DNA from: a virus
Reading direction: 5' to 3' (one strand)
Virus record (IMG/VR): IMGVR_UViG_3300025073_000027
Location: 73,723 to 137,722 of that record
DNA length: 64,000 nucleotides
Shown here: positions 6,112-40,003 of the stretch, in pieces
Layout of the letters: each line of letters opens with the position of its first letter
How positions within the stretch are numbered: position 1 is the first letter of the stretch
Translations under genes and position numbers: made by a program
The notes under the pieces: model-generated
Database searches by the model: none
Told to the model about the DNA's origin: nothing
What the model saw: the letters and a program-made list of their open reading frames with translations, nothing else

Positions 6112-6353
6112 TGCCCGTAACTCCCATTGAAGTAGAAAATACTTTATATATTTATATTGAAAGTAGTGGAAGTAGAGTTGTTAGAACAGGTTTACTTGGT
6201 TATTATGATCCTTTAATGATGACAGATTTATTTAATTTAACACTTGGAGAGCTATCAGTAAGAGATGATACATTACCTAGTTCAGTAGATGCAATAATTG
6301 ATGATCTTCCTGCTGGAATAAATGCTCACAAATTTGATTTAATAATAGGATAA
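6111..6353 (+). CDS. Hypothetical tail-module protein
   Basis: Start overlaps upstream stop (TAATG); GGAGG RBS. Confidence 0.55.
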   Translation: MPVTPIEVENTLYIYIESSGSRVVRTGLLGYYDPLMMTDLFNLTLGELSVRDDTLPSSVDAIIDDLPAGINAHKFDLIIG

Positions 6354-6358
6354 AAAAT

Positions 6359-7168
6359 ATGGGAAATACTGATAATTTAAATTTAGAAACTCATGATTTA
6401 GGAATAGATACAAATAGGGGTTTTGAAAGTTATCGAATGGGATTAAATGGTTCTGGTTCTATTTGCGATTATCCAGATAGTAATATGATGCTTATTTCTG
6501 ATTGGGCTGGAACTTTACCAATTGCAATGCTTGCATTATTATCTGTTACAAGTGCATCTGTAGCAACAGTAAATACATATGCTACTTCGGCTAGTAGTTC
6601 TGCATCTTCTTTATTAGCTGGAATTAATGCTGTAGATAGTAGGTTCGAAATAATAGATGAATTTTCAGGATCAGGACAAGCGGATTTTGATAGTATATCT
6701 CAAGATTATACTCATGTAATTATTATAGGTACTGCTGGTGTTAATCGAGGGGTAGATTTAGCTGATGTTGGATGTGATTTCAATGGAGATTCTGGTAGTT
6801 CTAATTATGCAACTGTTGAATGGATAAGGTCCGGTTCAGCGGGTGGAAGTGGAGGAAGTTCTGTTGACTTTGCTTCTTCATCAACTGCTCAAATTTTATT
6901 AGGAAATGTTTCTGGTTCTGTAAATAGCGGATATGGAGGTACATTTTTTGCTATTGTTCCATATTATTCTGGATCTACGGGTTTTTATAAAACGGCAATG
7001 GGCTTTTCTATGAATCATATGAGCGATTGGATGTCATCAATGAAAACGGGTGGTTATTGGCAAAGTGTAGATCCAATTACTAGAATTAGAATATTTGGAA
7101 GCGATAATACTGCTACACGCTATAATTTTTTAACTGGAACAAAAATTACATTATATGGTTTATTGTAA
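6359..7168 (+). CDS. Putative tail fibre/receptor-binding protein (paralog 1)
   Basis: Ser/Gly-rich; C-terminal domain clearly paralogous to 7180-7962 (IDEFS..GQADFD.I.Q..TH...GCDFNGD...FYKT.M.F...RIRIFG...GTK..LYG). Confidence 0.6.
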   Translation: MGNTDNLNLETHDLGIDTNRGFESYRMGLNGSGSICDYPDSNMMLISDWAGTLPIAMLALLSVTSASVATVNTYATSASSSASSLLAGINAVDSRFEIIDEFSGSGQADFDSISQDYTHVIIIGTAGVNRGVDLADVGCDFNGDSGSSNYATVEWIRSGSAGGSGGSSVDFASSSTAQILLGNVSGSVNSGYGGTFFAIVPYYSGSTGFYKTAMGFSMNHMSDWMSSMKTGGYWQSVDPITRIRIFGSDNTATRYNFLTGTKITLYGLL

Positions 7169-12622: not shown

Positions 12623-13148
12623 TTTTATATGCTTTTATAGTTTTTATTATATCTTCCCAACCATTTACTCTATTTTTATAATTATAATTTTCATTCCATG
12701 GAGCATTTATTAAAAGTCCATATGCTGTAGTATTTATAATATTATCGTAATTATCATCTATCATTATTGTTCCATTTAATAAAAATTTTGATGCCGTTTG
12801 TATATAATGATCATCTTTATTCCAAAATTTATTATTTTTTAACCATTGATATTTATATACTGATCCTTCGGGTGTACCACCAGTTACATAAACAATTTTA
12901 AAATTTAAATCACGTAAAATATTTATTCCTTCGAGGGCATACGGTAGTGGTTTTATATAATTATAAAGAGTTTTAGATTTTAAAAATTCATAAATTTTAT
13001 CTCCACATTCGGGAACTGTATATTGAACTAAATTCCAATCTTTAATTTGTTTAATTTTAAGTTTATCTTTATATTTTTGATTATATCTACGAATCCAGAC
13101 CTTAATTGTATCTGCAATTGTATCGTCAATGTCTATAAGGGCATACAT
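12600..13148 (-). CDS. 5'(3')-deoxyribonucleotidase (NT5C, HAD family)
   Basis: 'DIDDTIAD' motif I, 'K..WL', 'IDD', 'APWN'. Confidence 0.85.
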   Translation of the reverse strand: MYALIDIDDTIADTIKVWIRRYNQKYKDKLKIKQIKDWNLVQYTVPECGDKIYEFLKSKTLYNYIKPLPYALEGINILRDLNFKIVYVTGGTPEGSVYKYQWLKNNKFWNKDDHYIQTASKFLLNGTIMIDDNYDNIINTTAYGLLINAPWNENYNYKNRVNGWEDIIKTIKAYKNEQNIFN

Positions 13149-13157
13149 ATTTATTCC

Positions 13158-13424
13158 TTATAATTTTATAACTTCTAGTTTGGGTTCTTCTCTTATTTCA
13201 AAATCGACTTTATTATCAGTATTAGGAAAAATAGTGGCCCTCATTCCAATATATTTTTTACATAATTTTTTTGCTTCGAACCATTTAAGGTTTTTACCAA
13301 GAATAATTAATTTTCGTATACGATGTGTTCTTTTTGTGTTTTTCTTTATATCTATTACCTCTTTTTTTTCATAAGACCATCCTTTCACACTAAATAGTTT
13401 CTTTTCTTTTTTATCAGTATCCAT
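13158..13424 (-). CDS. Hypothetical protein
   Basis: ORF track; co-oriented within the operon; AGGAG upstream. Confidence 0.55.
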   Translation of the reverse strand: MDTDKKEKKLFSVKGWSYEKKEVIDIKKNTKRTHRIRKLIILGKNLKWFEAKKLCKKYIGMRATIFPNTDNKVDFEIREEPKLEVIKL

Positions 13425-13460
13425 TATTTATTATTTTCTCCTTTTATTTGTTATAAATTT

Positions 13461-14399
13461 TTATATAATATTTTCGTTTATTGGAACTGCTTTAGCCTTA
13501 TGTGGTATTTCTTTATATGATTCACAATTAAGATAAGTACATGCGCTACGAATACCCCATAAAATCTGATTGAGAATTTTTTCTAACGGTTGTCTTTGAG
13601 CAATATCTAATTCTGTTTCTTTTCCTTCAATAGATTTAATTTCTTTACCGTTGTTGATATGATTTTTTTCAGAAGCCATACCGAAAATTTTACCTGTATT
13701 TTCTGCTTCAAATGTATTGGCAATCATTCCACCTAACATAGCAAAATCTGCACCTGCATAAAAAGAATGAACTATATCGCCAGATTGTTTTATACCTCCA
13801 TCTGCCACAATTCCAATATTTATTTCAGAACATTCTTTAATTGCCGCTAATTGATTTCTGCTTACGCCAGTTACACGGCGAGTAAGGCAATTTGACCCTG
13901 GTCCAATTCCTATTCTTGCCCAGTTAAATCCACAATCTAATAAATGTATAGCAGCTTCTTTTGTAATAATATTTCCACACATTATAGAAATATCATCGCC
14001 TAGTTCTTTTCTTAATTGTTCCCCATATTCCTTGAGATTAGATAAATATCCATTAGCTATATCCACTGTAATTAAGATTGCTCCATGATCTATTGCATAT
14101 TTAGCAAGATCAATTTCCCATTGACCGCTTAATCCAATCGCAACACCAAAAGGAACATCAGCTTTATAAACTTTGCGAATATCTGCTTGTCGATCAATAT
14201 AGACTTTAAATCTATGAAGAATTCCCAAACAATTATTTTTACCCATTTCAATTACGAGTTCACTTCCCGAAATTCCAGCCATAGGTGAACTCATTATTGG
14301 GTATAAATTATGAAAATTACTTTCTAATTTAACATTCCCTCTATGATTTATACAACTAATGCTTTTTGGGATTAAATAAATACTATCATAATCATCCAT
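13461..14399 (-). CDS. GMP reductase / IMP dehydrogenase family protein
   Basis: 'GILHRF', 'VDIANG', 'GIGPGSNCLTR' (catalytic Cys), 'ADGGI', 'MLGG', 'GMAS', 'EG'; no CBS domains. Confidence 0.85.
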   Translation of the reverse strand: MDDYDSIYLIPKSISCINHRGNVKLESNFHNLYPIMSSPMAGISGSELVIEMGKNNCLGILHRFKVYIDRQADIRKVYKADVPFGVAIGLSGQWEIDLAKYAIDHGAILITVDIANGYLSNLKEYGEQLRKELGDDISIMCGNIITKEAAIHLLDCGFNWARIGIGPGSNCLTRRVTGVSRNQLAAIKECSEINIGIVADGGIKQSGDIVHSFYAGADFAMLGGMIANTFEAENTGKIFGMASEKNHINNGKEIKSIEGKETELDIAQRQPLEKILNQILWGIRSACTYLNCESYKEIPHKAKAVPINENII

Positions 14400-24777: not shown

Positions 24778-27021
24778 TTATAATAATTTAAGCCACGTAT
24801 TTCTACTTGTATTTTTATCAGTTTCAATTGCTTTATTGAAGGCCCAAGGTTCAGCAAGAATAAGACATCGCTTTATTGCTCTGGTAACAGTTGTGTAAAG
24901 ATAACATCGATCTAAAAGCATAAAATGTGTATTATCAATTAAAGATATTATTGTATGACACTGGCTTCCTTGGAATTTGTGTGTTGTTAAAGCATAAGCT
25001 AAATCTATATCTTTTAATTCTGTTTTAGTGTATTGAATATATTGATCATCGTATTTCACCACTAAAACCTTTTCTCCATCTGGATTTATACCTAAACTAT
25101 CTACATATCCTAAAGTTCCATTCATTACACCTTTTTCGTAATCGTTTCTAATATGTATTACCTTAGAACCAATTTTATATTTTATTTCACCATATTCCAT
25201 ATAAGGAACATCATCTGATAATAATATATCTTGTATTTGTCTATTTATTTTTTTAGTGCTATTAATACAATCCTTTTTTCTAGGTGTAAGAATAATTACT
25301 TCATCTAAACTTAGACTTTCCTCAGTAATTGAACGTAAAAATGTTTTTACCGCTATTTCATTCAAAGCATCGCGTGAATCTCTAAACATATAATAAAGAT
25401 CTTCTAATTCGCCATGAACAATTTTAAAACTCTTTTGTGGAACAGGATTTTTACCAACTCTTATTTTGTTAGCATCTGAAATAATTCCTGATTTTTCAGC
25501 TTGCCGATGTATCTTAGTTAATTTATTTAATTGTAATCCTTCTTTATCCAATAAATCAGAAAAAATATTGGCATAGCCGATAGGAGGTAATTGGAAGTTA
25601 TCGCCTACTAAAATAACTTTTGTTCCAGTTTGAATTGCCTTGAATAAATTAAGAAATAAATAACCATTTAACATTGAACATTCATCAATTAAAATAACAT
25701 CATAAGGCAATTTTAAATATTCATCAAATTTAAAGTTATTTAATCCATCTGCCCCCAAGAGTCTATGCAGCGTTGAACTAGGATATCCGGTAACTTCTTC
25801 TAATCTTTTAGAAGCTTTAGCGGCAAGTGTAGCGCAAGCAATAGGGTGATTACTATAAATATTTAGGATACCTCGTGATATAGACGATTTGCCAGTACCG
25901 GCAGGACCACAAAGAAGATTGAAATTGTTTTTAGTGATATTTATTAATGCTTCCCTTTGTTCTTCAGAGAAAATAAATCCCTGATCTTCTTCAGCTTTCT
26001 TTATACCTTCATTAATTTCTTCTTGTGTAATTTCAAGAAGCTCACTTTCACTAAATTCTTTAACGTATCTCCATATTTCTCGTTCAACCCAATAATAATA
26101 GTCTAATCCTACTTTCCAATTATCATCTTCATCTTTTTCAAAATGTAAAAAAGTGGTAAACCCTTTTTCTTTTTCAATTACGGATTGATAAATTTCTTCA
26201 CACTCAATTAGGTTTTCTTTTACAGCAATTGTAAGATCATCTAAATACAGCCAAGTATGTCCAGAACCATCACCTAATTCTCGTAGATAATTTTTTATAA
26301 ATGAAATGACTCTTTTATCAGAATGTTTCATTTCTGGATTAAGTTTTATTGCTATATTATCTGCTTGTTTGAAACTTATTCCAGGTATATCTATAATAAT
26401 ATATGGATCATTTAATAACTTTTGTTTCAATAATTCGGCATTAGGTTCAAAATTTAAAAGTTTGTGTATTTTTGAAAACGAAATCCCAAGGGGAGATAGT
26501 AATGTAAGAACATCAGCAATAGCATAATTACTAATAATCTTTTCCCTAATCAACTTCCAAGTATGATCTTTAATGCCCTTAGTATTATTTAAATCAATAT
26601 CACCTTCGTTACCACTAATAACTTTCTCAATAATGTCTGGATATGCTTCTAATAGAACTTGTGCCTGATTAGGAGTAACAATACTTTCTAAAAACTTTTG
26701 TTGTTGATCTACAGTCTTAGGAAGTTCTTGACTACTCTTAAGAATCTCGTAACCCCAACCATACTTTGAGTGATTTGTTAGTTTAGCTTTGAAACGATAA
26801 GGCATACCGATTGTAAGTTGTTGAGTTTTACCGGATAAATTAATTTGATAATAAGAATCAATTTTATCGGTTATAAAATCAGTATTGAAAATTTGTTTCG
26901 CCTGAGGAATTTCTTTATCAAGAGAAACCAAATAAGAACCCCAACTGGAATCGGGACTATAGAATTTCTCAAATGTGGGTGTTCCATCAAATTCAACAAT
27001 TTGACCTTCGGAAAAATCCAT
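24778..27021 (-). CDS. recD2: RecD2-like SF1B helicase
   Basis: N-terminal OB/HhH region, 'GPAGTGKS', 'IDECSM', 'GD.FQLPP', 'HRQA', 'YALT.HK.QGS', 'YT.VTRA'. Confidence 0.9.
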   Translation of the reverse strand: MDFSEGQIVEFDGTPTFEKFYSPDSSWGSYLVSLDKEIPQAKQIFNTDFITDKIDSYYQINLSGKTQQLTIGMPYRFKAKLTNHSKYGWGYEILKSSQELPKTVDQQQKFLESIVTPNQAQVLLEAYPDIIEKVISGNEGDIDLNNTKGIKDHTWKLIREKIISNYAIADVLTLLSPLGISFSKIHKLLNFEPNAELLKQKLLNDPYIIIDIPGISFKQADNIAIKLNPEMKHSDKRVISFIKNYLRELGDGSGHTWLYLDDLTIAVKENLIECEEIYQSVIEKEKGFTTFLHFEKDEDDNWKVGLDYYYWVEREIWRYVKEFSESELLEITQEEINEGIKKAEEDQGFIFSEEQREALINITKNNFNLLCGPAGTGKSSISRGILNIYSNHPIACATLAAKASKRLEEVTGYPSSTLHRLLGADGLNNFKFDEYLKLPYDVILIDECSMLNGYLFLNLFKAIQTGTKVILVGDNFQLPPIGYANIFSDLLDKEGLQLNKLTKIHRQAEKSGIISDANKIRVGKNPVPQKSFKIVHGELEDLYYMFRDSRDALNEIAVKTFLRSITEESLSLDEVIILTPRKKDCINSTKKINRQIQDILLSDDVPYMEYGEIKYKIGSKVIHIRNDYEKGVMNGTLGYVDSLGINPDGEKVLVVKYDDQYIQYTKTELKDIDLAYALTTHKFQGSQCHTIISLIDNTHFMLLDRCYLYTTVTRAIKRCLILAEPWAFNKAIETDKNTSRNTWLKLL

Positions 27022-27075
27022 TTATTATTTATTATCCTTGTTATTATTTTATAATTTATTATTTATAGATGTTAT

Positions 27076-27104
27076 ATATTATCACAGAATTACAAATTTG
27101 TCAA
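27076..27104 (-). promoter_or_regulatory. sigma70/sigmaA-type promoter with extended -10
   Basis: TTGACAAATTTGTAATTCTGTGATAATAT. Confidence 0.75.
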
Positions 27105-29710
27105 GACTTGGATAAAAATTCATGTTCCTTTTCTGTAATAAAATAAGTTTCCATCCACCAATCTATCTTATCAGGAACTTGTTCCCACTCACCATTCTCA
27201 TTCTTACGCATAGAATTTTTCTTTTTGAATGATTTACAGAGAAGAATATCACCTTCAGTAAAAGGATGAGAATCAAATATTTTTTTAGATACTTTTACAA
27301 CTTGGCAAGTGCCAGTCGATAAAGGATATAATTCTATTTTAGGAGTATATTTAGTATCAATTTTCTTTACAACAGCATATCTTTTATCTACATCAAACTT
27401 AGTTCGAATATTGCCAGCAACTTCTATCTCGTTATTTATTTGCTCAAAAATAGTAAAACTTTTTTCATCCTGAAAATCATACGATAAACGTAATTCTTCT
27501 AATCGTTTTACTTTAGATTTATCGGTTAATGTTTTCTTGTATCTATTCTTCCCATTAGTAAATTCTTCAAAAAACCAAAGTTGTTTTTTATTGCTACCAA
27601 ATTTATCAAAATAATTTATTTTTATCAAGTCTTTAAATTTACTAGAAATCAGAGAATTTTCTTCACAATATACAAGCAAGTCTAAGAAATCATTTCCAGT
27701 AAAATTTTTATTTATGTATGCTAAATTATCAATTAATTTACTAGGTATACTTTTAATACCTTTTAGAATAGAAACAACACCTTCAATTTCTGTTTCTCGT
27801 AACGCTTCTGGATCTACATAATCTTCTGGCTCATCTTCAAAACTAAATGGTTCAATATCTTGATTATTTTCAATGTCTGTAATGTATTTTTGGGCTTCTT
27901 CTTCATAAAAGGCATAATCAATATTATATTTTTCTATAGGTATGGAAGCATCATAATCATTTAATATTGTAGTTAGTTTGCCAACATATAAACCAATTTC
28001 TGTTCCATTAGACATTCTGCGTTTGATTAGTTTACCACCGTTGTTTGACACGAAAAATCTATTGTTTTTTTGAAGTTGAATAATATTATCATCTTTATGA
28101 AACTCTAAAATAAAATCTCCACCTGTCTTTTGAGATATACAGAAATCCAAAATATTGTCAGATTTCTTCAAAGTGTCAATAACGGAAATCTTATTTACAA
28201 AATAATCATACAACGCTTTAGGAACAATGGGATGACGAAATGCCCGTTTTAATTCAACAGTTTTTAAGTAACGTCCTTTTTCCTTAGTTTTACCATCTGG
28301 TTTAACCGTTATGTAGTTATTAACATCGCTTCTATAATATGCCAGATATTCAGTATCTTCAAGAACAAAACCTGTTTTCTTTTGCCACCATTCAGAAATT
28401 TCTTGACATTTATTTTCTAATTCTACTGGCAAATGTAATACTATACCGTCTGTATTTGTAGAAATAACTTCAATTCCTTCTACTACCAAGGCTTCTATTA
28501 ACATTAATAAATATAACTGTCCACTTACCGTTACAGATAATAATTGTTTTGGATCATAAAGCCAAAAAACATCACTGCCCAATTTTCCAAAAATGCTATT
28601 AATTGTGATCTTAAGACTATCGGCTTTAATTTTATCTCCGCTTTTCTTGGCTTTCAATCGTTCTTTAGTAATACGCTTAAGAATATTAACAAATTTAGGA
28701 TCGAGATGTTCAGAATAAAGATTATTGTTGATCATAATAGATGGGTAGTATGACGCTACATCTTTATCCATTATTTTTATCTTATCCGTAGATATAAAAT
28801 ATCCTGGTTTATCAACACTATGCAAACCACCTACTCCTAATTCATAAGTAACATTTGCAAACTTTACTGTCTTACTATATTTAAAATTATCTTCTTTGTG
28901 AACAACCTTTTCTTCAATTTCTCTTTTTATTCGTTTTAGACGATTAGTTTTAAATTCAATGTTCTTACCTAAACAATCACCAACACGAATACTATCTCTT
29001 TCTGTTCGCAAGTTACGCAATTCTTTAGAAGTTATTCCTGTTGCTTTGCAGTATATATGCTCTAAAATAACATCTGCCATCTTGGAATCACTTGCACTCA
29101 TTAAATCAACTTCATATTCTTCACTTAGTTTTTCACGTAATTCAAGTTGAGAAGATAAGGATTGAAGTAATTTTTGAGTAATAAGAACATCGTTCAAGTT
29201 ATAACTTAAAACCTTTTCGTATTCTTCTAGTTGAACATGGTGATCATAAGGTAAAGGTAAATCTTGTACTTTGTGCCAGAGAAGATTGATACTAATTTGT
29301 TTGAGGGACACGCCTAACTTATCAAAGGCCATGAGTTTCATCAAGTCAATTTGTTTGTACTTTACATTATTCGGTCTTTGATGATTACGTGTTTTTGTAT
29401 CAAATGCCATACGATTAGAATTAATAAGAGAGTTGGAAAAATTATATATTTCAGGATTTATTTCTTTTGGTTTTACATTTATATTTTGTTGATAATATTC
29501 AGTAATAAAATGTAAAATAGCACCATCAAAGAGAATGTTGTTAAAACCAATAAGTATCATTTCATGGTCTAAGAAATGATAGAGAGATTTAATATCGTTT
29601 CGCCCTGGCGCTATTACAAATACGTGTTGCTCTGATTCATTATCAGAATTTAAAAATGTACTTGAAAAAAAATTGGGAAATATTTCTACATCGTATGTAT
29701 ATCTGACCAT
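27101..29710 (-). CDS. DNA polymerase: family-B core with a DnaE-like C-terminal extension
   Basis: Exo I 'YDVE', Exo II 'GFN...FD', Exo III 'YNLNDV'; PolB motifs 'DVASYYPS', 'KITINSIFG', 'NTDG'; extra ~230-aa C-terminus. Confidence 0.85.
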   Translation of the reverse strand: MVRYTYDVEIFPNFFSSTFLNSDNESEQHVFVIAPGRNDIKSLYHFLDHEMILIGFNNILFDGAILHFITEYYQQNINVKPKEINPEIYNFSNSLINSNRMAFDTKTRNHQRPNNVKYKQIDLMKLMAFDKLGVSLKQISINLLWHKVQDLPLPYDHHVQLEEYEKVLSYNLNDVLITQKLLQSLSSQLELREKLSEEYEVDLMSASDSKMADVILEHIYCKATGITSKELRNLRTERDSIRVGDCLGKNIEFKTNRLKRIKREIEEKVVHKEDNFKYSKTVKFANVTYELGVGGLHSVDKPGYFISTDKIKIMDKDVASYYPSIMINNNLYSEHLDPKFVNILKRITKERLKAKKSGDKIKADSLKITINSIFGKLGSDVFWLYDPKQLLSVTVSGQLYLLMLIEALVVEGIEVISTNTDGIVLHLPVELENKCQEISEWWQKKTGFVLEDTEYLAYYRSDVNNYITVKPDGKTKEKGRYLKTVELKRAFRHPIVPKALYDYFVNKISVIDTLKKSDNILDFCISQKTGGDFILEFHKDDNIIQLQKNNRFFVSNNGGKLIKRRMSNGTEIGLYVGKLTTILNDYDASIPIEKYNIDYAFYEEEAQKYITDIENNQDIEPFSFEDEPEDYVDPEALRETEIEGVVSILKGIKSIPSKLIDNLAYINKNFTGNDFLDLLVYCEENSLISSKFKDLIKINYFDKFGSNKKQLWFFEEFTNGKNRYKKTLTDKSKVKRLEELRLSYDFQDEKSFTIFEQINNEIEVAGNIRTKFDVDKRYAVVKKIDTKYTPKIELYPLSTGTCQVVKVSKKIFDSHPFTEGDILLCKSFKKKNSMRKNENGEWEQVPDKIDWWMETYFITEKEHEFLSKS

Positions 29711-29720
29711 TATTATCCTT

Positions 29721-31430
29721 TTATTTATTTATGATGTAATCTGAAACAACCAATTGTGGACTAGAAATTTGATTAAAATTATTTATGCCACATCTTCCAA
29801 CAATTGTAACACAAATCTCCGTACCACCCCAATCTTCATTAATTAATCGTAAAATTTCATCATCCTCTTTGCATTTAAAGCGAATTATTGAAACATCATC
29901 ATTTAGCATAAACTTCCATGTATCTTTATTAGCACCCATAATTTCAATGTCTTTAGTGTTCATTTTGATGTTTTCTACAGCTACTAGACATTCTCCAATG
30001 TTCTGCCCATAATAATCTTTTAATTCATTTACCTGTAATACAAAATCATAAGTTAATTCTTCTGGTGAAAGAATAAAATCTACATGATAAACTTTATCGA
30101 AATCAACATCAATAAGCATTTCATTGGTTTTAGCAATAACATCTTTGATATTTTCTTTTTTGATTTCACAGCCAAATGCAGAATTATGTCCAGCGGCAAA
30201 ACTAACCAAACCTGTACTCAACATAAAATCTTTTAGATTGTCAATCGCTGAATTGTCATAGTTTCTGCCACTACCATTAAGAAAACCTTTTTTCCAATCC
30301 AGTTCACGTACTAAAATACAAGGTTTAGAATATTGTGAAGCAAGTTTCATAGCAACTAAACCAATATAACTACCGTCTAAATTATCAGCATTAGCAAATA
30401 AAATTTTGTTTTCATTCCATTTATATTTCTCAATGTTCTGATTTATAGACTCTAATACCTTATCCACTTCCCTATTCTGCTTTGCTTTACAATTTACGCA
30501 CAATCTGGCAACTCTAGTATAAATATCTTCTTTGACTAGTTCTGTTTCACCACGTTTCTTATAATCAAATTCTTCATACATTTGAGAAAACGCTTTAAAC
30601 ATCATTTCTTTTTCTTCCTGAGTAGAAGAACGAATCAATCCGTTGATTAATGGAATAATATAAAACATCACATTAATAATATTTACTACACCACCAATAG
30701 AATAATCTTGCTTTTGAATTAGTGCTTGAAATAGAGGATTTTGAATATTGCTTAATCCCTTATCCACTAGTCTTTTGTTTTCATAGGGGCGAAGATCCAT
30801 ACTATCAGCAATAATAGATAATGCAACTAAATCCAAATACTTATCTGCTCTATTTTCCCATAACTCATCGTCCAATGCCTGCAAATACTTATATACTACA
30901 GCACCACCAGATAGTTCATTATTCGGATAATTGTCAAGTTGAGGATTAACAATAACAGCATAAGGGTTATCTATTTCTCTTTGGTGGTGATCTAAAATAA
31001 TAACATCAATACCTCTTTCTCGTAGTGCCTTACATTGATTAACATCATTAGTTCCAGCATCCGGTACAAAAAGAAGTTTAATATTATTTGGTATTTTTAT
31101 CTCAGAACTAAGGCCATGTTGTTTTTTGGTATGAATATAATATTCAATATGTCCTTCAGGATAAATTTCTTTCAAATATTGATATAAAATACTAGCAGAA
31201 CATTGTCCATCAGCATCGGAATCTACAACAATACCAATATCACTTAAAAGTTCAATGTGTTTTAAAAGTAAACTTACCGCTTCTTGAATGTTCGCCAATG
31301 ACGAAAAAGAATGTAAGCAAGAGTCGTCCAACGTGAGATATTTTTTAGCATCTATTCCTCGATTATTTAATATTATCTCTTTGGGAGAATTTTTGTTTAA
31401 ATTATAATCATTAACTAATTTATATTTCAT
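29721..31430 (-). CDS. recJ: RecJ-like DHH single-stranded DNA exonuclease
   Basis: 'DSDADG', 'HGL', 'DAG', 'LDHH', 'GSGR', 'GH..AFG'. Confidence 0.9.
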   Translation of the reverse strand: MKYKLVNDYNLNKNSPKEIILNNRGIDAKKYLTLDDSCLHSFSSLANIQEAVSLLLKHIELLSDIGIVVDSDADGQCSASILYQYLKEIYPEGHIEYYIHTKKQHGLSSEIKIPNNIKLLFVPDAGTNDVNQCKALRERGIDVIILDHHQREIDNPYAVIVNPQLDNYPNNELSGGAVVYKYLQALDDELWENRADKYLDLVALSIIADSMDLRPYENKRLVDKGLSNIQNPLFQALIQKQDYSIGGVVNIINVMFYIIPLINGLIRSSTQEEKEMMFKAFSQMYEEFDYKKRGETELVKEDIYTRVARLCVNCKAKQNREVDKVLESINQNIEKYKWNENKILFANADNLDGSYIGLVAMKLASQYSKPCILVRELDWKKGFLNGSGRNYDNSAIDNLKDFMLSTGLVSFAAGHNSAFGCEIKKENIKDVIAKTNEMLIDVDFDKVYHVDFILSPEELTYDFVLQVNELKDYYGQNIGECLVAVENIKMNTKDIEIMGANKDTWKFMLNDDVSIIRFKCKEDDEILRLINEDWGGTEICVTIVGRCGINNFNQISSPQLVVSDYIINK

Positions 31431-32378
31431 TTATAATCCTTTATTATTTATATTTATATATGCCTTTTTTAACCATTCTATAAATAAATTTTGAGGCATA
31501 TTATTTTTTGATTTATTACATATTTTACAGCACGAAACTACATTATTTTCAATATATCCCTTATTTGAATCAATTCTGTCTATCCCATTATAATTAAAAA
31601 TTTCACCTGTTTTATTAATCAATATATTACTTGCTATTTCTCCACAATAATAACAATTTCCGCGTACTAATTCGGTAAAATATTCCCTTGACAAATTAAA
31701 TTCTATATTTTTATTTTTAGCCCTTTGTTTATAGTTTTTAATAATTCTATTTATAAGTACATAATCTCTATCTTTATTAATTTTATTAATATTTAATTTA
31801 TCAAAAGAAAGACATCCGCAAGATTGAGTATTACCACTACGTAAACTACCATGTTGTACAATAATTTTATTTCCGCAATCACATATACATTCCCAATAAG
31901 TTTTTTTCTTATTTTCGTATTTAATTTGTCGAAGAACTAATAGACGATTAAATTTTATGCCAGTTAAATCTACAAAACAAGCTTCTCTCAATTTTTCGAT
32001 TCTAAGGCAACCACACGATTGAGTTGTTCCATTTTTTAAATTACTACCTATAACAACCGCGTTTTTTCCACAATCACATAAACAATTCCAATAACTATGT
32101 TTTCTATTCATATACGCAAAAGATAAAACCAATAATCTTCCAAATTTCTGTCCATTTAATTTTAAAACACTATTTCCCTTATTTCCTTCTTTTAATAAAC
32201 AACCGCAAGATTTTACTCTACCCGATTTTAAATCACTTGTTTTTAAAATTTTTTCATTTCCACAATCACATACACATAACCAAAATGCACCGGATTTTTG
32301 ATTTTTCGGTTTCTCAACTCGTTTTACAACAGTTAATTTATTAAATTTTTGTCCAATTAAATCTTTAGTTTTATTCAA
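31431..32378 (-). CDS. HNH homing endonuclease with three CxCDCG repeats
   Basis: 3x 'G.KF..L.V...W.C.CDCG....L..G...SCGC'; C-terminal 'CYYC..GIDRIDS.KGY...NVV.CC..CN..K'. Confidence 0.8.
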   Translation of the reverse strand: MNKTKDLIGQKFNKLTVVKRVEKPKNQKSGAFWLCVCDCGNEKILKTSDLKSGRVKSCGCLLKEGNKGNSVLKLNGQKFGRLLVLSFAYMNRKHSYWNCLCDCGKNAVVIGSNLKNGTTQSCGCLRIEKLREACFVDLTGIKFNRLLVLRQIKYENKKKTYWECICDCGNKIIVQHGSLRSGNTQSCGCLSFDKLNINKINKDRDYVLINRIIKNYKQRAKNKNIEFNLSREYFTELVRGNCYYCGEIASNILINKTGEIFNYNGIDRIDSNKGYIENNVVSCCKICNKSKNNMPQNLFIEWLKKAYININNKGL

Positions 32379-33744: not shown

Positions 33745-34758
33745 TTATTTAATTCTATATATATTGTCCTTTGCCAATTTTTCAAATTTTTGGCAATTAT
33801 CGGAAGGTGATTCCTTTTCTCCCAAAATATTATCTCTATCGAACATTGCCCAAATTTCTATTCCATCTATAAATTGATTTGCCATATGTTGTACCTTTTC
33901 TTCACTCACATCTTTATCAAAAGCGATACAGATAGGAACAGCTAATCTACTTAATTTCTCTATTTGGGTTTTAGATACCTTTTCACCACCAGTAGCAACA
34001 GCGTTTTTGTAACCATAACTCCATAGTTGTAAAACACCTTTTTCTGCTTCTGTGACCCATGCCCAATTCTTTTCTTTTATATAAGGATATGTAAGATGAT
34101 ATCCATAGAGTATTTTTTGTCTTGGACAAGGCTCGATATAGAGGTACTTTAAATCATCTTCATCAAGTTTATCTTTGAATAGCCTTCCCTTTACTCCACA
34201 TAAAATGCTGGTTTCATCACGTATTGGAATAGTTATTCTATTTGTAAAACTATCATATCCAATTTCAAAAATTTTCTGAGTCTCATAACTTATACCATCT
34301 CGTAGAAACATATCATTGACGCAAGGGGTTTGATAATATGTAAGAATGTTTTCTGAAATAGGTTTTATTGGTATATCTTCTTCATGACAATTGCCAGAAT
34401 TCATTGCCTTTAATTCTTTAGTTATTCGAAGAGATTCAGGTAAATTAGCATCTACCAAATAAGGATTTATTTCAAATAACTCACAAATATATTTAAGTGC
34501 TTGAAAGAAATTTAGTTCTTTATAAAATTGTACTAACGTAAATATATCACTTGGAATAGATAAATCTCTTGTATAATTTATTACATTTAAATTCGGAGCA
34601 TATATAGTAATTGCTTGTTTATTATCGGCAGGAGGTGGATTACCCGCTGTCCAATATCCAGAAGAATGCCATTTTATATGCTGACATCCAATATGTTCAA
34701 GTAAAGTTTCTACTTTTTGATTATTGTATAAATATTCCTTAATCTCTTGAGCATTCAT
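33745..34758 (-). CDS. DNA primase (TOPRIM; SPbeta YorJ-like)
   Basis: 'RITIPIRD', 'KY.Y', 'LYG', 'EAEK', 'FDKD'. Confidence 0.85.
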   Translation of the reverse strand: MNAQEIKEYLYNNQKVETLLEHIGCQHIKWHSSGYWTAGNPPPADNKQAITIYAPNLNVINYTRDLSIPSDIFTLVQFYKELNFFQALKYICELFEINPYLVDANLPESLRITKELKAMNSGNCHEEDIPIKPISENILTYYQTPCVNDMFLRDGISYETQKIFEIGYDSFTNRITIPIRDETSILCGVKGRLFKDKLDEDDLKYLYIEPCPRQKILYGYHLTYPYIKEKNWAWVTEAEKGVLQLWSYGYKNAVATGGEKVSKTQIEKLSRLAVPICIAFDKDVSEEKVQHMANQFIDGIEIWAMFDRDNILGEKESPSDNCQKFEKLAKDNIYRIK

Positions 34759-34764
34759 TCATTA

Positions 34765-36294
34765 TTATTTTTTAAATACCTCTCCTAATTCTATCCATTT
34801 ATTTAAATCAAGATCCACGCTAAAGACCAGTTTCTTTCTAGCACCAGCTCTATTTTTTTGTACAACTGCAATATAATGTTTTTTATTTAAATCAAAACTA
34901 CGCTCTTTTGCTTTACCCCAATCTTCATCAGGATTGCTTTCAAAATAATAATATTTGCAATAATCTTCTTTATCAACTTCTTTAAACATAATCATTTGAT
35001 CAAGTATATGAACTGTATGTTTAGCAGAAGCTATATTTGAAGAATTTAATTCCATCGGTGGAGTAAAATTGGAATCATCACTAAGTTGTTGAGAACAATA
35101 TAACCATATATCTAATTCTGATACCAATTCTCTTAATTTAGTTGTAACTTCTTTAAGTGCCGCCCAATTACCAATATCACTAATTGGATTTTTTAAAGTA
35201 TCATAAAACATATAAGAAACAGAGTAAATCATTTTCATTTTACGCATTTGATGTTCTAAGTTTACAAAACTATAATCTGTAGAAACATCCATTACATAAA
35301 TAAGTCCATCTGATTCTTTTTCAATCCAATTAGCAACTTCCATTATTTGATTATATTCAACAGATTTCTTTTTTAATTTTCCAATAAATATATCAATAGA
35401 TTCAACAAAATTACCATCATCATCTCGTTCACGATATATAAATTCACCATTATTGTCTTTATATAATCCCAATGCTATTTCACGCTCTTTTTTATGCATT
35501 TTATAACCATGTATTTGTTGAAATTCGGGATTATTAAGACAAGTTATTAATAATGCCAATTTCATATCTTGTAAACTCATTTCATTTAACATTACAAATA
35601 CTTTTTGCTTTTGAACCAATGCCAGATAAGCTATTGCTTTAAACATTAATCTTGATTTTCCAAAATTGGAAAGCATGGCAATTGACATCATTGTTTTAGT
35701 TCTAATTCCACGAAATAAATCATTTAAGATAGGAAACGGAAATGTAACGCCCATGTCGGGAACTTCTAAACAATCAGTAATAATATTACTCATGCCTTCA
35801 TTCAATACTTTTGCTTCATTATTAGTTAAAATTACTGTATGAATTTTATCGGCTTTGCTACGAATTAATTTATAAATATCTAATGCACCAAATAAATTAA
35901 ATTTAGGATGATCTATTATTTTTTGAACATTAAAACCGTTTCTTCCATATTCCCTCAATAATGAATATTTTTTTAAAACTTCAAAATATAATTTAAAGTC
36001 ATCCGTTTGTGCTAAATTCATCCATGCATCAATTGTGTCCCAACCACCGTATTTTCTATATATTGTTAATCTTTCACTATCTTCTGACATAAAAAGATTT
36101 ATAGAACTTTGATTAAAATTCTGTGTTCTTTTCTTGAAAATTATTTCACCGTTATCATATAAGAATTTGCATACTTCATCTTGAAAATCATATTTTGACT
36201 TAATGAACTTACTATATTCTATAAACAAACTAGGTTCTTTAAAAAAACAACCAATTAATAATATTTCATTCTGTACATTGGCAATTGCTTCCAT
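34765..36294 (-). CDS. Replicative DnaB-like helicase (YorI-like)
   Basis: Walker A variant 'SNFGKS', 'NEM', 'YD.LK', 'QQL', 'KNR.G'. Confidence 0.8.
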   Translation of the reverse strand: MEAIANVQNEILLIGCFFKEPSLFIEYSKFIKSKYDFQDEVCKFLYDNGEIIFKKRTQNFNQSSINLFMSEDSERLTIYRKYGGWDTIDAWMNLAQTDDFKLYFEVLKKYSLLREYGRNGFNVQKIIDHPKFNLFGALDIYKLIRSKADKIHTVILTNNEAKVLNEGMSNIITDCLEVPDMGVTFPFPILNDLFRGIRTKTMMSIAMLSNFGKSRLMFKAIAYLALVQKQKVFVMLNEMSLQDMKLALLITCLNNPEFQQIHGYKMHKKEREIALGLYKDNNGEFIYRERDDDGNFVESIDIFIGKLKKKSVEYNQIMEVANWIEKESDGLIYVMDVSTDYSFVNLEHQMRKMKMIYSVSYMFYDTLKNPISDIGNWAALKEVTTKLRELVSELDIWLYCSQQLSDDSNFTPPMELNSSNIASAKHTVHILDQMIMFKEVDKEDYCKYYYFESNPDEDWGKAKERSFDLNKKHYIAVVQKNRAGARKKLVFSVDLDLNKWIELGEVFKK

Positions 36295-38127: not shown

Positions 38128-38862
38128 TTAGTTATGCAAAATTATATTTAATTTTGCATTAGGCCCAAATATTTCCAATGCTTTTTTATTATAAACCAAT
38201 GCGGCTTCTATTTCAGTTTTATATCTTCCTAAATAATATGTTTTTCTTTCATGGGTTATATGAACAGACCAACTATTATTTGATGTTTTTGCTACACCAA
38301 CATATTTACTAGTAGTATTTTTTCTATTTTTAGAACCCTGTTGAACTTTAGAATTTTGTTCTCTTAGTTCTTTACTGTGTTTTTTTCCATATTGAGGATG
38401 ATTTTCACCAGAATAATCTTTATGACTCGCTTTCATTTTTTTTCTTGTTTCATCGGTATGTTTTCTGCCATAAAAACCATTCTTTTCACCTCGTACAGAA
38501 TTACCTATTTGTTTTTTTGATTCTTCTTTATGTGTATAACCTTCAAATAAATTTCCTGCTGTTCCTCCCCAAGCAACATTATATCCCCACTCAGTAAAGT
38601 GAGATTTTAATTCTCTTATATAATATATTTCTTTTTCATCTAGCTCCTCTAACGATAAATTCTCTTCAACAATCCAAAGAATATAGCTATTTTCTCCAAA
38701 TTCGTTCCATTCTTTTTGTAAATAAGGATTATAGTGATTATTCTTTTTTAAAGCAGCAAAATGATGATTATTTCTATCTTGTATGTTGATACTAGCACCA
38801 ATATATTTTTTATTATTTATTATATTTTCAATACAATATATACCGCTTATATTATTATTCAT
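38128..38862 (-). CDS. GIY-YIG homing endonuclease with NUMOD3 and AP2 domains
   Basis: 'GIY.I.N..N.K.YIG', 'GYN...GG', 'G.KH..E' repeats, 'SKY.GV..W...YLG.Y..E.EAA..YN'. Confidence 0.85.
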   Translation of the reverse strand: MNNNISGIYCIENIINNKKYIGASINIQDRNNHHFAALKKNNHYNPYLQKEWNEFGENSYILWIVEENLSLEELDEKEIYYIRELKSHFTEWGYNVAWGGTAGNLFEGYTHKEESKKQIGNSVRGEKNGFYGRKHTDETRKKMKASHKDYSGENHPQYGKKHSKELREQNSKVQQGSKNRKNTTSKYVGVAKTSNNSWSVHITHERKTYYLGRYKTEIEAALVYNKKALEIFGPNAKLNIILHN

Positions 38863-38929: not shown

Positions 38930-40003
38930 TTACCAAGGAGTATCCGAATCATCCTCATCATCATCAGATTTACTACCCCAATCATCATCGTTACTACTAC
39001 CACCAGCAGTTTCAAATTCCTTTTCTTTATCTGCTAACTTCTTTAATTCTTCCAAAGCCGCATCCATCTTCTTTTCAGAATAAGTTTCTGTATCTACGGT
39101 ATCCTTGTCAGCACCAGTAATTAGCCTGAGGGTTCTATAAGGAGCAAAAGTACGCTTCATTTTATTGCCTGTACCCCACCCATCATCATCTTCATTATCC
39201 ACATCTACTTCATCGGTATTGCGAATAGTTGTAATGTCCCCATAGGTTTCAATAAAAGTATAAGGCTTAAGATTTTTCCTAAAATTAGAAGCCAACTTAT
39301 TATTTTCAATATAAAATTCAGAAGTTTCAATAGAATTATAATTTACAACATTGCCGATAAGAACAAATCTACCCTCTTGTTCTTCGTCTTTTTCAATACT
39401 TTGGAAAACAAGATTTTGAGTAAAGTTCGCTGTTACCTCAAAATCATCAGCATCAAAATCAACATCTTGGCAACGAGAGATTTGCTGAGGAATTAGTTTT
39501 ACGGAATTAACAATATCACCATTCTGATTTTGATAATGACTATATTCCAACTGCCCTCGAATAAATACAGACATGCCATCTTCAAGATGTTCCTTTACAT
39601 ATTCAGCAGCATCAAAGGGATGAAGTGTACGCTTATCATTTACTTCCTTGCCCTTTTCGTCATGGGTTTTCACTAATCCGAGGTTAATTCCTATTAAACG
39701 ATAACCTTCTTTGGAAAACTTATTGCGATTTTTCCATTCAACTTTTACAGTTTCATTCTTTGTATTTTTATCAGCACCCTTTGGTTTGCCAGAGTAGTAT
39801 ACAAAGTCCTGAGGCATACCATTGAAGGTTACATATAAAACACTATCCTTGGAAACCTGAACGCCAAAATTCACAGACCTCCAATCCTTATTGGTCTTGG
39901 TCTTTGTTGACTTATAAAACGTGTCTTTTGATACTCCTAACACCTTCCCTTTTAGTTGAAAATTACCGCGAGTCTGAGGCAGTTCCAATCCTTTACTTGC
40001 CAT
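38930..40003 (-). CDS. Single-stranded DNA-binding protein (YorF-like)
   Basis: OB-like beta pattern; highly acidic C-terminus ending DTPW; upstream of the AAA ATPase as in SPbeta. Confidence 0.65.
   Translation of the reverse strand: MASKGLELPQTRGNFQLKGKVLGVSKDTFYKSTKTKTNKDWRSVNFGVQVSKDSVLYVTFNGMPQDFVYYSGKPKGADKNTKNETVKVEWKNRNKFSKEGYRLIGINLGLVKTHDEKGKEVNDKRTLHPFDAAEYVKEHLEDGMSVFIRGQLEYSHYQNQNGDIVNSVKLIPQQISRCQDVDFDADDFEVTANFTQNLVFQSIEKDEEQEGRFVLIGNVVNYNSIETSEFYIENNKLASNFRKNLKPYTFIETYGDITTIRNTDEVDVDNEDDDGWGTGNKMKRTFAPYRTLRLITGADKDTVDTETYSEKKMDAALEELKKLADKEKEFETAGGSSNDDDWGSKSDDDEDDSDTPW

Follow-up and report, generated by a model that had tools for sequence, protein, structure and literature searches.

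How does a virus come to encode, in a single open reading frame, the catalytic core of one DNA polymerase family and the C-terminus of another? The question is raised by a gene in the last 64 kb (hereafter the window; G+C content ~28%) of the 137,722-bp IMG/VR virus record IMGVR_UViG_3300025073_000027, which CheckV rates as 100% complete. The catalytic folds of families B and C are unrelated, and the two are commonly assigned to separate replisome designs. An initial annotation, made from the sequence alone, had described a protein in which a family-B (PolB) core carries the tail of a family-C (DnaE, Pol III alpha) enzyme, and had read it as a PolB that took the place of a DnaE core and kept the DnaE tail. 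The open reading frame (ORF) list and the translation confirm the complete gene at 27101..29710 on the minus strand, with 869 codons plus stop. Evidence from the core, the tail and the genomic slot supports a cross-family fusion, and we conclude, with a probability of roughly 85%, that the gene encodes a natural chimeric replicase, in which a phrog_1252-type PolB core, an acidic linker and the helix-hairpin-helix (HhH) plus OB-fold module of a phage DnaE are joined, which was swapped into its slot, and in which the module has a presumed working role.

The family-B nature of the core is borne out by profile, sequence and structure. Residues 3-618 match the PHROG profile phrog_1252 ('DNA polymerase') with E 6.7e-151 over profile positions 54-656 of 663; since this match spans nearly the whole profile, typical phrog_1252 members end where the core ends. 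A tblastn search with the whole protein returned 1012 phage records, ~28-34% identical over residues 1-618 and annotated as (family B) DNA polymerases of crAss-like, 9g-like and phage-73-like phages, and in none of the 1012 did the match reach 80% of the query. Sequence matches in the Protein Data Bank (PDB) over residues 343-484 are to S. solfataricus PolB (1s5j, E 1.1e-6) and E. coli Pol II (E 3e-4). Foldseek, run on the full-length AlphaFold2 model, found only family-B polymerases among the ranks listed (9N, Tgo, KOD, Pol II, Pol alpha and ASFV), headed by archaeal PolB, with a best E of 2.7e-13 and ~1e-13 to 1e-11 for 9N, Tgo, KOD, Pol II and Pol alpha. The phrog_1252 and Foldseek matches define a DEDDy 3'-5' exonuclease region with approximate limits at residues 1-230 (29021..29710), and the motifs together with the PDB and Foldseek matches define the polymerase region at about residues 231-620 (27851..29020), both on the minus strand like all parts of the gene. 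In 31 aligned relatives, D7/E9, N57..D62 and Y170..D174, which we take to be Exo I, Exo II and Exo III, are invariant. The motifs quoted in the initial annotation are all present, with DVASYYPS at residues 317-324, KITINSIFG at 367-375 and NTDG at 419-422, and presumably represent motifs A (DxxSLYPS-like), B (KxxxNSxYG-like) and C (DTD-like). Their residues are overall invariant or at least 90% conserved in the 31 sequences: in motif A (DKDVASYYPS, with D315/D317..S320 Y322 P323) D317, S320, Y322 and P323 are invariant, in motif B K367, N371 and G375, and in motif C (TNTDG) N419, T420, D421 and G422, where an N replaces the first D.

The match to phrog_1252 stops at residue 618 and is followed by the acidic sequence EPFSFEDEPEDYVDPE at residues 620-635, which the initial annotation had named as a linker, and by a tail of ~235 residues. 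We assign residues 621-638 (27797..27850) to the linker and to the region of the original fusion junction, at the end of the profile match and at a dip in model confidence: the predicted local distance difference test (pLDDT) falls to 68-78 here, as against 89.0 for the full-length model (predicted template modelling score 0.70; alignment of 31 sequences). The proposed likeness of the tail to the HhH and OB region of phage Pol III alpha proves correct both in sequence and in fold. Searched alone, residues 625-869 match phrog_11119 (E 1.6e-18) and positions 869-1068 of the 1190 in phrog_405 (E 1.1e-5). By tblastn the tail matches 56 phage records, 53 of them over at least 80% of its length, in Geobacillus virus E3, Tsamsa-like Bacillus phages and phiCD211-like Clostridioides phages; among the 40 matches listed, 36 lie under DNA polymerase features (33 as Pol III alpha or dnaE), one under 'hypothetical protein' and three in unannotated records. 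Identity to phage DnaE tails is about 27-52%, with the maximum of 52% over 222 residues. In a collection of 5.8 billion proteins the tail has 31 homologues, of which 19 are PHP + DNA_pol3_alpha + finger proteins with the tail at the extreme C-terminus (28-52% identity), while the other 12, free of Pfam domains, consist of a PolB core plus the tail. Among 1.84 billion representative clusters, 1229 match a profile built from the tail at E <=0.001, 961 of them at <=1e-10.

The tail modelled alone (pLDDT 90.3; alignment of 46 sequences) folds as seven helices followed by a five-strand barrel. In a VIA-align comparison with 48,161 PDB representatives, the best three chains are all Pol III alpha and contain both subdomains in the same order: Taq 2hpi_A (chain 874-1122; Z 9.1, root-mean-square deviation 4.7, 174 aligned residues), M. 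tuberculosis DnaE1 7pu7_A (845-1099; Z 8.5, 186 aligned) and E. coli 5fku_A (820-1071; Z 8.3, 177 aligned). The ranks that follow are isolated OB folds (SSB/RPA/PriB; Z 6.6-8.0). The possibility that the tail is unlike DnaE tails, which would have spoken against a fusion, is thus contradicted. The structural alignment to Pol III alpha starts at residues 639-641 (tail residues 15-17), and the matched region is, as we take it, the HhH-containing 'beta-binding' domain plus the OB domain, with presumably no counterpart of the tau-binding C-terminal domain. In the window protein the helical HhH domain, counterpart of the 'beta-binding domain', covers residues 639-770 (27401..27796) and the C-terminal OB-fold residues 771-860 (27131..27400), with barrel strands between 778 and 858. 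Across 46 tails F701 never varies, and G705 is conserved in at least 90%. Neither PHP, nor the PF07733 catalytic core, nor the fingers PF17657 was found in the window protein; it is therefore not a family-C polymerase and carries only a family-C C-terminal module. A sequence search of the PDB with the tail alone gave a single match, to an unrelated antiviral protein (E 0.84).

The fusion is not a one-off. A profile of the fusion finds 29 IMG/VR loci, of which 12 have the long tail (862-907 residues in those with a complete ORF), three a short tail and 14 no tail or another architecture. The 12 long-tail loci lie on separate contigs and represent 10 distinct sequences (the tails of L004 and L005, and those of L010 and L012, are identical). 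They and 12 fused protein clusters are 42-77% identical to the window protein, and the clades of PolB fusions are 35-48% identical to one another in the tail. The reading of a single fused gene is hence refined to that of a conserved family of fusions. Its members differ at the junction: L007-L010 and L012 keep ~25 extra residues of the end of the DnaE fingers, which resemble a different DnaE lineage (43-51% identity), and the three short-tail PolBs (L011 9977-12325, L013 9989-12259 and L015 10001-12259; 752-782 residues) carry the OB part only (hhalign probability 94-97%, E 1e-7 to 1e-10), together with a linker and a QxxLF peptide directly after the core.

What does the chimera replace? The window gene lies between a RecJ-like single-stranded DNA exonuclease (29721..31430, minus strand; phrog_2484, E 2e-150; Pfam DHH and RecJ_OB), the left flank of the swapped cassette, and a RecD2-like SF1 helicase (24778..27021, minus strand; phrog_4412, E 7e-167; Pfam AAA_30, HHH_RecD2 and SH3_13), the right flank. 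The initial annotation had pointed to SPbeta, where a DnaE-type gene (yorL) would follow recJ (yorK), and had placed the window polymerase in that slot. In related phages, a full DnaE does lie between orthologous RecJ and RecD2-like genes in L031, L032, L034, L040, L117 and L118, while the order RecJ, PolB with tail, RecD2 is found in L002, L003, L004, L005 and L016, that is, in five of the 12 long-tail loci. No PolB-core match was found in any of L031-L110. P0005 (PolB type) and P0019 (DnaE type) both have a longest listed contig of 8683 nt and might share it. The DnaE-type locus L032 has a RecJ 58% identical to that of the window, as compared with 49-50% for the PolB-type loci L003-5 and L016, and its gene after DnaE is 49-56% identical to the window RecD2-like gene. 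Window and L032 are collinear over two blocks, one comprising the DnaB-like helicase, the primase and RecJ and the other the tail and RecD2; between these blocks, window 29730-27766 (PolB core) and L032 9932-12473 (DnaE core) have no counterpart in each other. The order helicase, primase, single-stranded DNA exonuclease and Pol III alpha recurs in the cultured Geobacillus virus E3.

The limits of the replaced segment can be read from closer pairs. Three PolB-type loci (L111-L113) and two DnaE-type loci from metagenomes (L117 and L118) form such a group. L117 is 82.5-84.0% identical in nucleotides (nt) to L111-L113 over ~5.3 kb; the alignment sets in 194 codons short of the DnaE stop and continues past the end of RecD2. 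L118 matches the PolB loci at 79-82% nt identity over the 3' end of RecJ, as far as the polymerase start codon, and then again from the same point in the tail, and nothing aligns between the start codon and that point. From the conserved FLDLL stretch to the C-terminus, PolB and DnaE genes are 96-99% identical in amino acids (P0012/P0019 99%, L005/P0017 97%, L003/P0016 96%), whereas the 38 residues directly upstream are 21% identical. In the 194-codon segment L117 (DnaE) and L113 (PolB) share 95.9% of nucleotides and 96.4% of amino acids, and L113 is closer to L117 than to other PolB-type loci (86% nt). When the window is compared with L032 by blastn, the homologous stretch opens at nt 27691 (codon 674, immediately ahead of FLDLL) and extends for 1,725 bp into the RecD2-like gene, and tails of the window clade are 52-56% identical to the nearest DnaE tails downstream of FLDLL as against 18-28% upstream. 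The exchanged unit thus opens with the polymerase start codon and ends within the tail, at the FLDLL codons. Where FLDLL begins (codons 674-675, 27686..27691), the tail has a second, sharp boundary, apparently of homologous recombination, from which DNA homology to DnaE-type loci runs downstream; this boundary refines the fusion reading.

Core and tail have followed different histories. A PolB-core tree, computed by careful search from 31 rows and 621 columns, unites the 23 tail-bearing cores in a single clade with ultrafast bootstrap support of 95 and an SH-like approximate likelihood ratio (SH-aLRT) of 98, with the tail-less relatives (607-624 residues) outside it. A tree of 31 tails, with the two most distant DnaE tails as its root, places the PolB-linked tails in among those of DnaE and requires three changes of the PolB label. 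A larger tree of 83 distinct tails (20 PolB-linked and 63 DnaE-linked, two of the latter from truncated ORFs; nine identical duplicates dropped) was built by a quick search with SH-aLRT support only. Here the PolB-linked tails fall into four clades among DnaE tails, supported branches force at least four changes, and the window clade of five tails has the DnaE tails of P0008, P0010, P0009 and L031 as its sister group (SH-aLRT 90). Since the two phylogenies are discordant, cassettes have probably been exchanged repeatedly, and since the tail-bearing cores are monophyletic, one old illegitimate fusion may have yielded the PolB with its tail. The core cassette would then have spread among related phages by homologous recombination, with the RecJ end and the conserved tail as arms, repeatedly trading places with DnaE cores and re-sampling tails from resident DnaE genes. 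In the resulting proteins the HhH and OB module would serve the PolB core as it serves Pol III alpha, gripping the duplex product and the single-stranded template and/or docking the polymerase to a clamp or other replisome partner; if this role is kept, the catalytic core becomes exchangeable with the rest of the replisome unchanged.

Several observations weigh against this reading. No Pfam PolB family matches the core, even at E up to 10, and the clade is hence divergent from the Pfam models. The sole Pfam match of the protein, HHH_6 (PF14579) at residues 645-711 of the tail, is below threshold (E 0.0048; 17.5 bits against a cut-off of 25.6), and Foldseek, although its top matches for the tail are Pol III alpha too, gives these weak E-values of ~2e-3. 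In PolB-linked tails the first HhH hairpin lacks the G-x-G signature (IKSIP, IKGIP or IKGLS as compared with IKGFG in DnaE tails), so that part of the DNA-binding surface may be degenerate. No clamp-binding motif was identified in the tail and no dnaN in the window phage. Each function that we ascribe to the tail, be it tethering to DNA, to a clamp or to the replisome, is putative. As to the slot, both flanks are common to only four of the 80 DnaE loci kept by the IMG/VR scan, and the remaining seven long-tail PolB loci have no RecJ or RecD2 match within the locus DNA examined. An approximately unbiased test on the 31-tail set rejects a single clade of PolB tails at p 0.028 only, and recombination inside the tail violates the single-tree assumption of this test and of the tail trees. 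The recent swaps may, moreover, be read either way, as PolB replacing DnaE or the reverse.

Is the tail then needed at all? It could be a functionless passenger, kept as a recombination arm behind a PolB core that works alone. The exchange boundary sits within the tail at a conserved stretch, just as expected of an arm, the signature of the first hairpin is lost, and 607-624 residues are enough for the nearest tail-less PolB relatives (37-41% identical) to function. This reading nonetheless strikes us as improbable. Across the diverged PolB-fusion clades the tail stays an open, confidently folded domain pair; the 38 residues upstream of the boundary, needless as an arm and covered by the sub-threshold HHH_6 match, are also kept; and other PolBs of the clade keep the OB part alone. 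Furthermore, the tails of L111 and L112 differ by 40 synonymous and 19 non-synonymous codons among 194, so that, by this crude count, the tail is under purifying selection in PolB genes. In Pol III alpha, the HhH and OB module has contacts to the clamp as well as to duplex DNA and the single-stranded template. As the second hairpin (YFDKFG) is conserved in PolB-linked tails even though the first has lost G-x-G, a role in DNA tethering or replisome docking is favoured over that of a passenger, at about even odds.

With respect to the clamp, the relatives provide a hint. Tail-less L017-L022 (607-624 residues if complete; for example the ORFs L018 5811-7670 and L021 9995-11836) end in QLSLF, QLKLF, QLTLF or QQQLF. 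The consensus of beta-clamp-binding peptides is QL[SD]LF-like, and because these ends match it, a beta clamp was probably a partner of the PolB lineage before the tail was gained. At the corresponding core-end position the window protein has only a degenerate 'QDIEPFSF', which, by alignment, may derive from the end of the DnaE fingers. Another candidate clamp-binding peptide, 'KKQLWFF', was dropped, being part of a predicted helix and its Q not conserved in relatives. A dnaN gene is present in the phages of L011 and L009 and absent from L005 and L032; in L011 the DnaN-like clamp (12686-13825; PF00712, E 5e-25) follows ~360 nt downstream of the polymerase after a small ORF. A complex prediction of the post-core region of the L009 fusion with the DnaN of the same phage gave no answer (score 0.01, no controls) and speaks for neither side.

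The absence of a clamp and a clamp loader from the window phage could also mean that the chimera is an accessory or repair polymerase and that host Pol III replicates the genome. We consider this very unlikely. The gene sits in the replicative DnaE slot of a helicase-primase-RecJ-polymerase-RecD2 module, its proofreading and polymerase motifs are intact, and no other polymerase family is detectable in the genome: neither PF07733 (DnaE core) nor PF00476 (PolA) has a match anywhere in it, which leaves the chimera as its sole detectable polymerase. Besides the two flanking genes, the module comprises, all on the minus strand, an SSB-like protein (38930-40003), a GIY-YIG/NUMOD3 homing endonuclease (38128-38862), an AAA_24/Sak4-like protein between the latter and the DnaB-like helicase (34765-36294), a DnaG-like primase (33745-34758), and an N6/N4 methyltransferase between the primase and an HNH endonuclease with repeated Cys-rich units (31431-32378), which adjoins RecJ. 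HNH homologues lie beside other polymerases as well (L015 13322-13942, L032 about 6154-6705, L106 13134-13655), and HNH or GIY-YIG nucleases could seed gene conversion that moves polymerase cassettes. A host scan of genome contigs returned only three contigs of metagenome-assembled genomes (Patescibacteria, Woesearchaeota and Holosporales), two of them below 5 kb, and no host is inferred.

The direction of transfer might also be reversed, with the HhH and OB module native to the PolB clade and passed from there to phage DnaE genes. The monophyly of the tail-bearing cores would allow one old origin in the PolB lineage, and the ambiguous direction of recent swaps suits either course. This is less probable still, as the same two domains occur in the same order in the cellular Pol III alpha of Thermus, Mycobacterium and E. 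coli, and the nearest PolB outgroups have no tail. Among the best 150 of the 1229 tail-bearing clusters, 104 are DnaE-linked and nine PolB-linked (37 are fragments too short to classify); in the first tail tree the PolB-linked tails lie among those of DnaE, and in the larger one, midpoint-rooted solely for drawing, the earliest splits are DnaE-only.

Finally, although the record is a metagenome-assembled virus contig and near-identical tail DNA in PolB-type and DnaE-type relatives could in principle mislead an assembler, a chimeric assembly of a PolB gene and a DnaE gene is scarcely credible, given the same architecture in 12 IMG/VR loci and 12 protein clusters, the continuous reading frame, the conserved junction, and Logan contigs that bridge the junction with 0 differences over 857 nt (27089-27945) and 244 nt (27674-27917) in two runs without a flag as possible source. 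Two more runs, possibly the source, span the whole gene. The junction stretch is present in groundwater and soil metagenome runs from seven studies; no RNA run is among the sequencing runs that carry it.

Some further features of the locus and its relatives deserve mention. In all four runs examined, a 32,254-nt high-depth contig matches window 27634-27655 and 29647-29668 (22 nt with one mismatch each, in opposite orientations), the former just within the tail boundary and the latter close to where the gene starts; this could be chance in AT-rich DNA or point to a related element. A 21-nt direct repeat of 86% identity (27029-27049 and 29710-29730) lies directly upstream of the RecD2-like and polymerase start codons and is probably a shared ribosome-binding context. 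After the OB fold, residues 861-869 (27104-27130) form a semi-conserved acidic-aromatic peptide of low pLDDT, common to PolB-type and DnaE-type proteins (e.g. HEFL, DEFT, DKL), which may be a short docking motif. The PolB-type proteins P0022 and P0027 (929 and 922 residues) have an insertion of ~60 residues within the core. On the DnaE side, L086 (12416-13063), L094 (12440-13051) and L098 (12434-13060) have one or two in-frame stops (table 11) in the tail-coding part, which could reflect recoding, a pseudogene or sequencing error, and P0019 (1493 residues) and P0024 (1334 residues) contain intein insertions (PF14890 in precomputed domains); a long match suggests an intein in L054 (10001-14251) too.

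Beyond this locus, we tentatively propose, at somewhat less than even odds, that the DnaE HhH and OB module is a portable replisome adaptor independent of polymerase family, into which family-C or family-B engines plug upstream and whose FLDLL and RecJ arms permit frequent cassette exchange. The pressure for such exchange may come from host defences or inhibitors aimed at one polymerase core. If true, the family would represent a natural experiment in which a family-B enzyme is built into a Pol III-style replisome via a borrowed tail. Two cores interchangeable on one C-terminal module bear on the modularity of replicases, on which part of Pol III alpha serves replisome integration and which catalysis, and, with breakpoints mapped to the codon, on the mechanism of polymerase replacement across phages. 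The matched PolB and DnaE sibling pairs offer a ready comparison for the drivers of polymerase swapping, and a compact proofreading PolB with a natural, putatively DNA-binding tail is an enzyme worth characterising.

How does the chimera compare with known systems? It resembles phage and bacterial DnaE (Geobacillus virus E3 gp96; 2hpi, 7pu7, 5fku) in having HhH then OB in the same order and fold, and phage DnaE also in its slot after a RecJ-like gene. Unlike DnaE, it has no PHP, Pol-beta-like palm, thumb, fingers or tau-binding C-terminal domain, and its catalysis would fall to a family-B palm, unrelated to that of DnaE and accompanied by a DEDDy proofreading domain of its own. With the phrog_1252-type PolBs of crAss-like, 9g-like and phage-73-like phages it shares the core (~30-34% identity over residues 1-618), yet these end at ~607-625 residues, the nearest tail-less ones in a QLxLF-type peptide, and the window protein has ~235 extra, family-C-derived residues. 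Motif C of this PolB group has been described as divergent (Kazlauskas et al. 2020, PMC7544198); the NTDG of the window departs from the usual motif and is, going by that description rather than by a direct motif comparison, compatible with it.

In-situ polymerase swaps, in which unrelated polymerase families occupy one locus with neighbours unchanged, have already been reported in Caudoviricetes (Yutin et al., Virol J 2024, PMC11348598). As far as the text of that article goes, its swaps are PolA/PolB and PolA/PolC and concern whole genes or gene blocks, and in its clade 4 (Spbetavirus and relatives) a PolC-family enzyme is regarded as the ancestral one, in the vicinity of a RecJ-like exonuclease, a DnaB-like helicase and a DnaG-like primase. 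The same pattern is found here, with flanks 79-84% nt identical between DnaE-type L117/L118 and PolB-type L111-113 and cores without similarity. What differs from the published swaps, so far as that text describes them, is the pair of families (C and B), the position of one breakpoint inside the gene, and the chimeric protein that keeps a family-C accessory module. The words 'fusion', 'C-terminal' and 'DnaE' are absent from the article's text as available, and a natural PolB-DnaE chimera was not found in the literature, including the available texts of surveys of PolB diversity (PMC7544198), bacterial polymerases (PMC12926913) and jumbo-phage replication (PMC7824862) as well as PMC11348598, whose supplementary tables might list some. 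In-situ swapping as such is thus established, while a within-gene swap giving a B/C chimera appears to be new, no report of one having been found. The closest parallel in design is an engineered one: Phi29 Pol-HhH, described as gaining salt tolerance and replication performance from an appended HhH (PMC8313265), likewise joins a family-B polymerase to a DNA-binding helix-hairpin-helix module at the C-terminus. Laboratory constructs of this kind use HhH motifs taken from other proteins, whereas the fusion in the window is natural, conserved, and carries an OB fold in addition.

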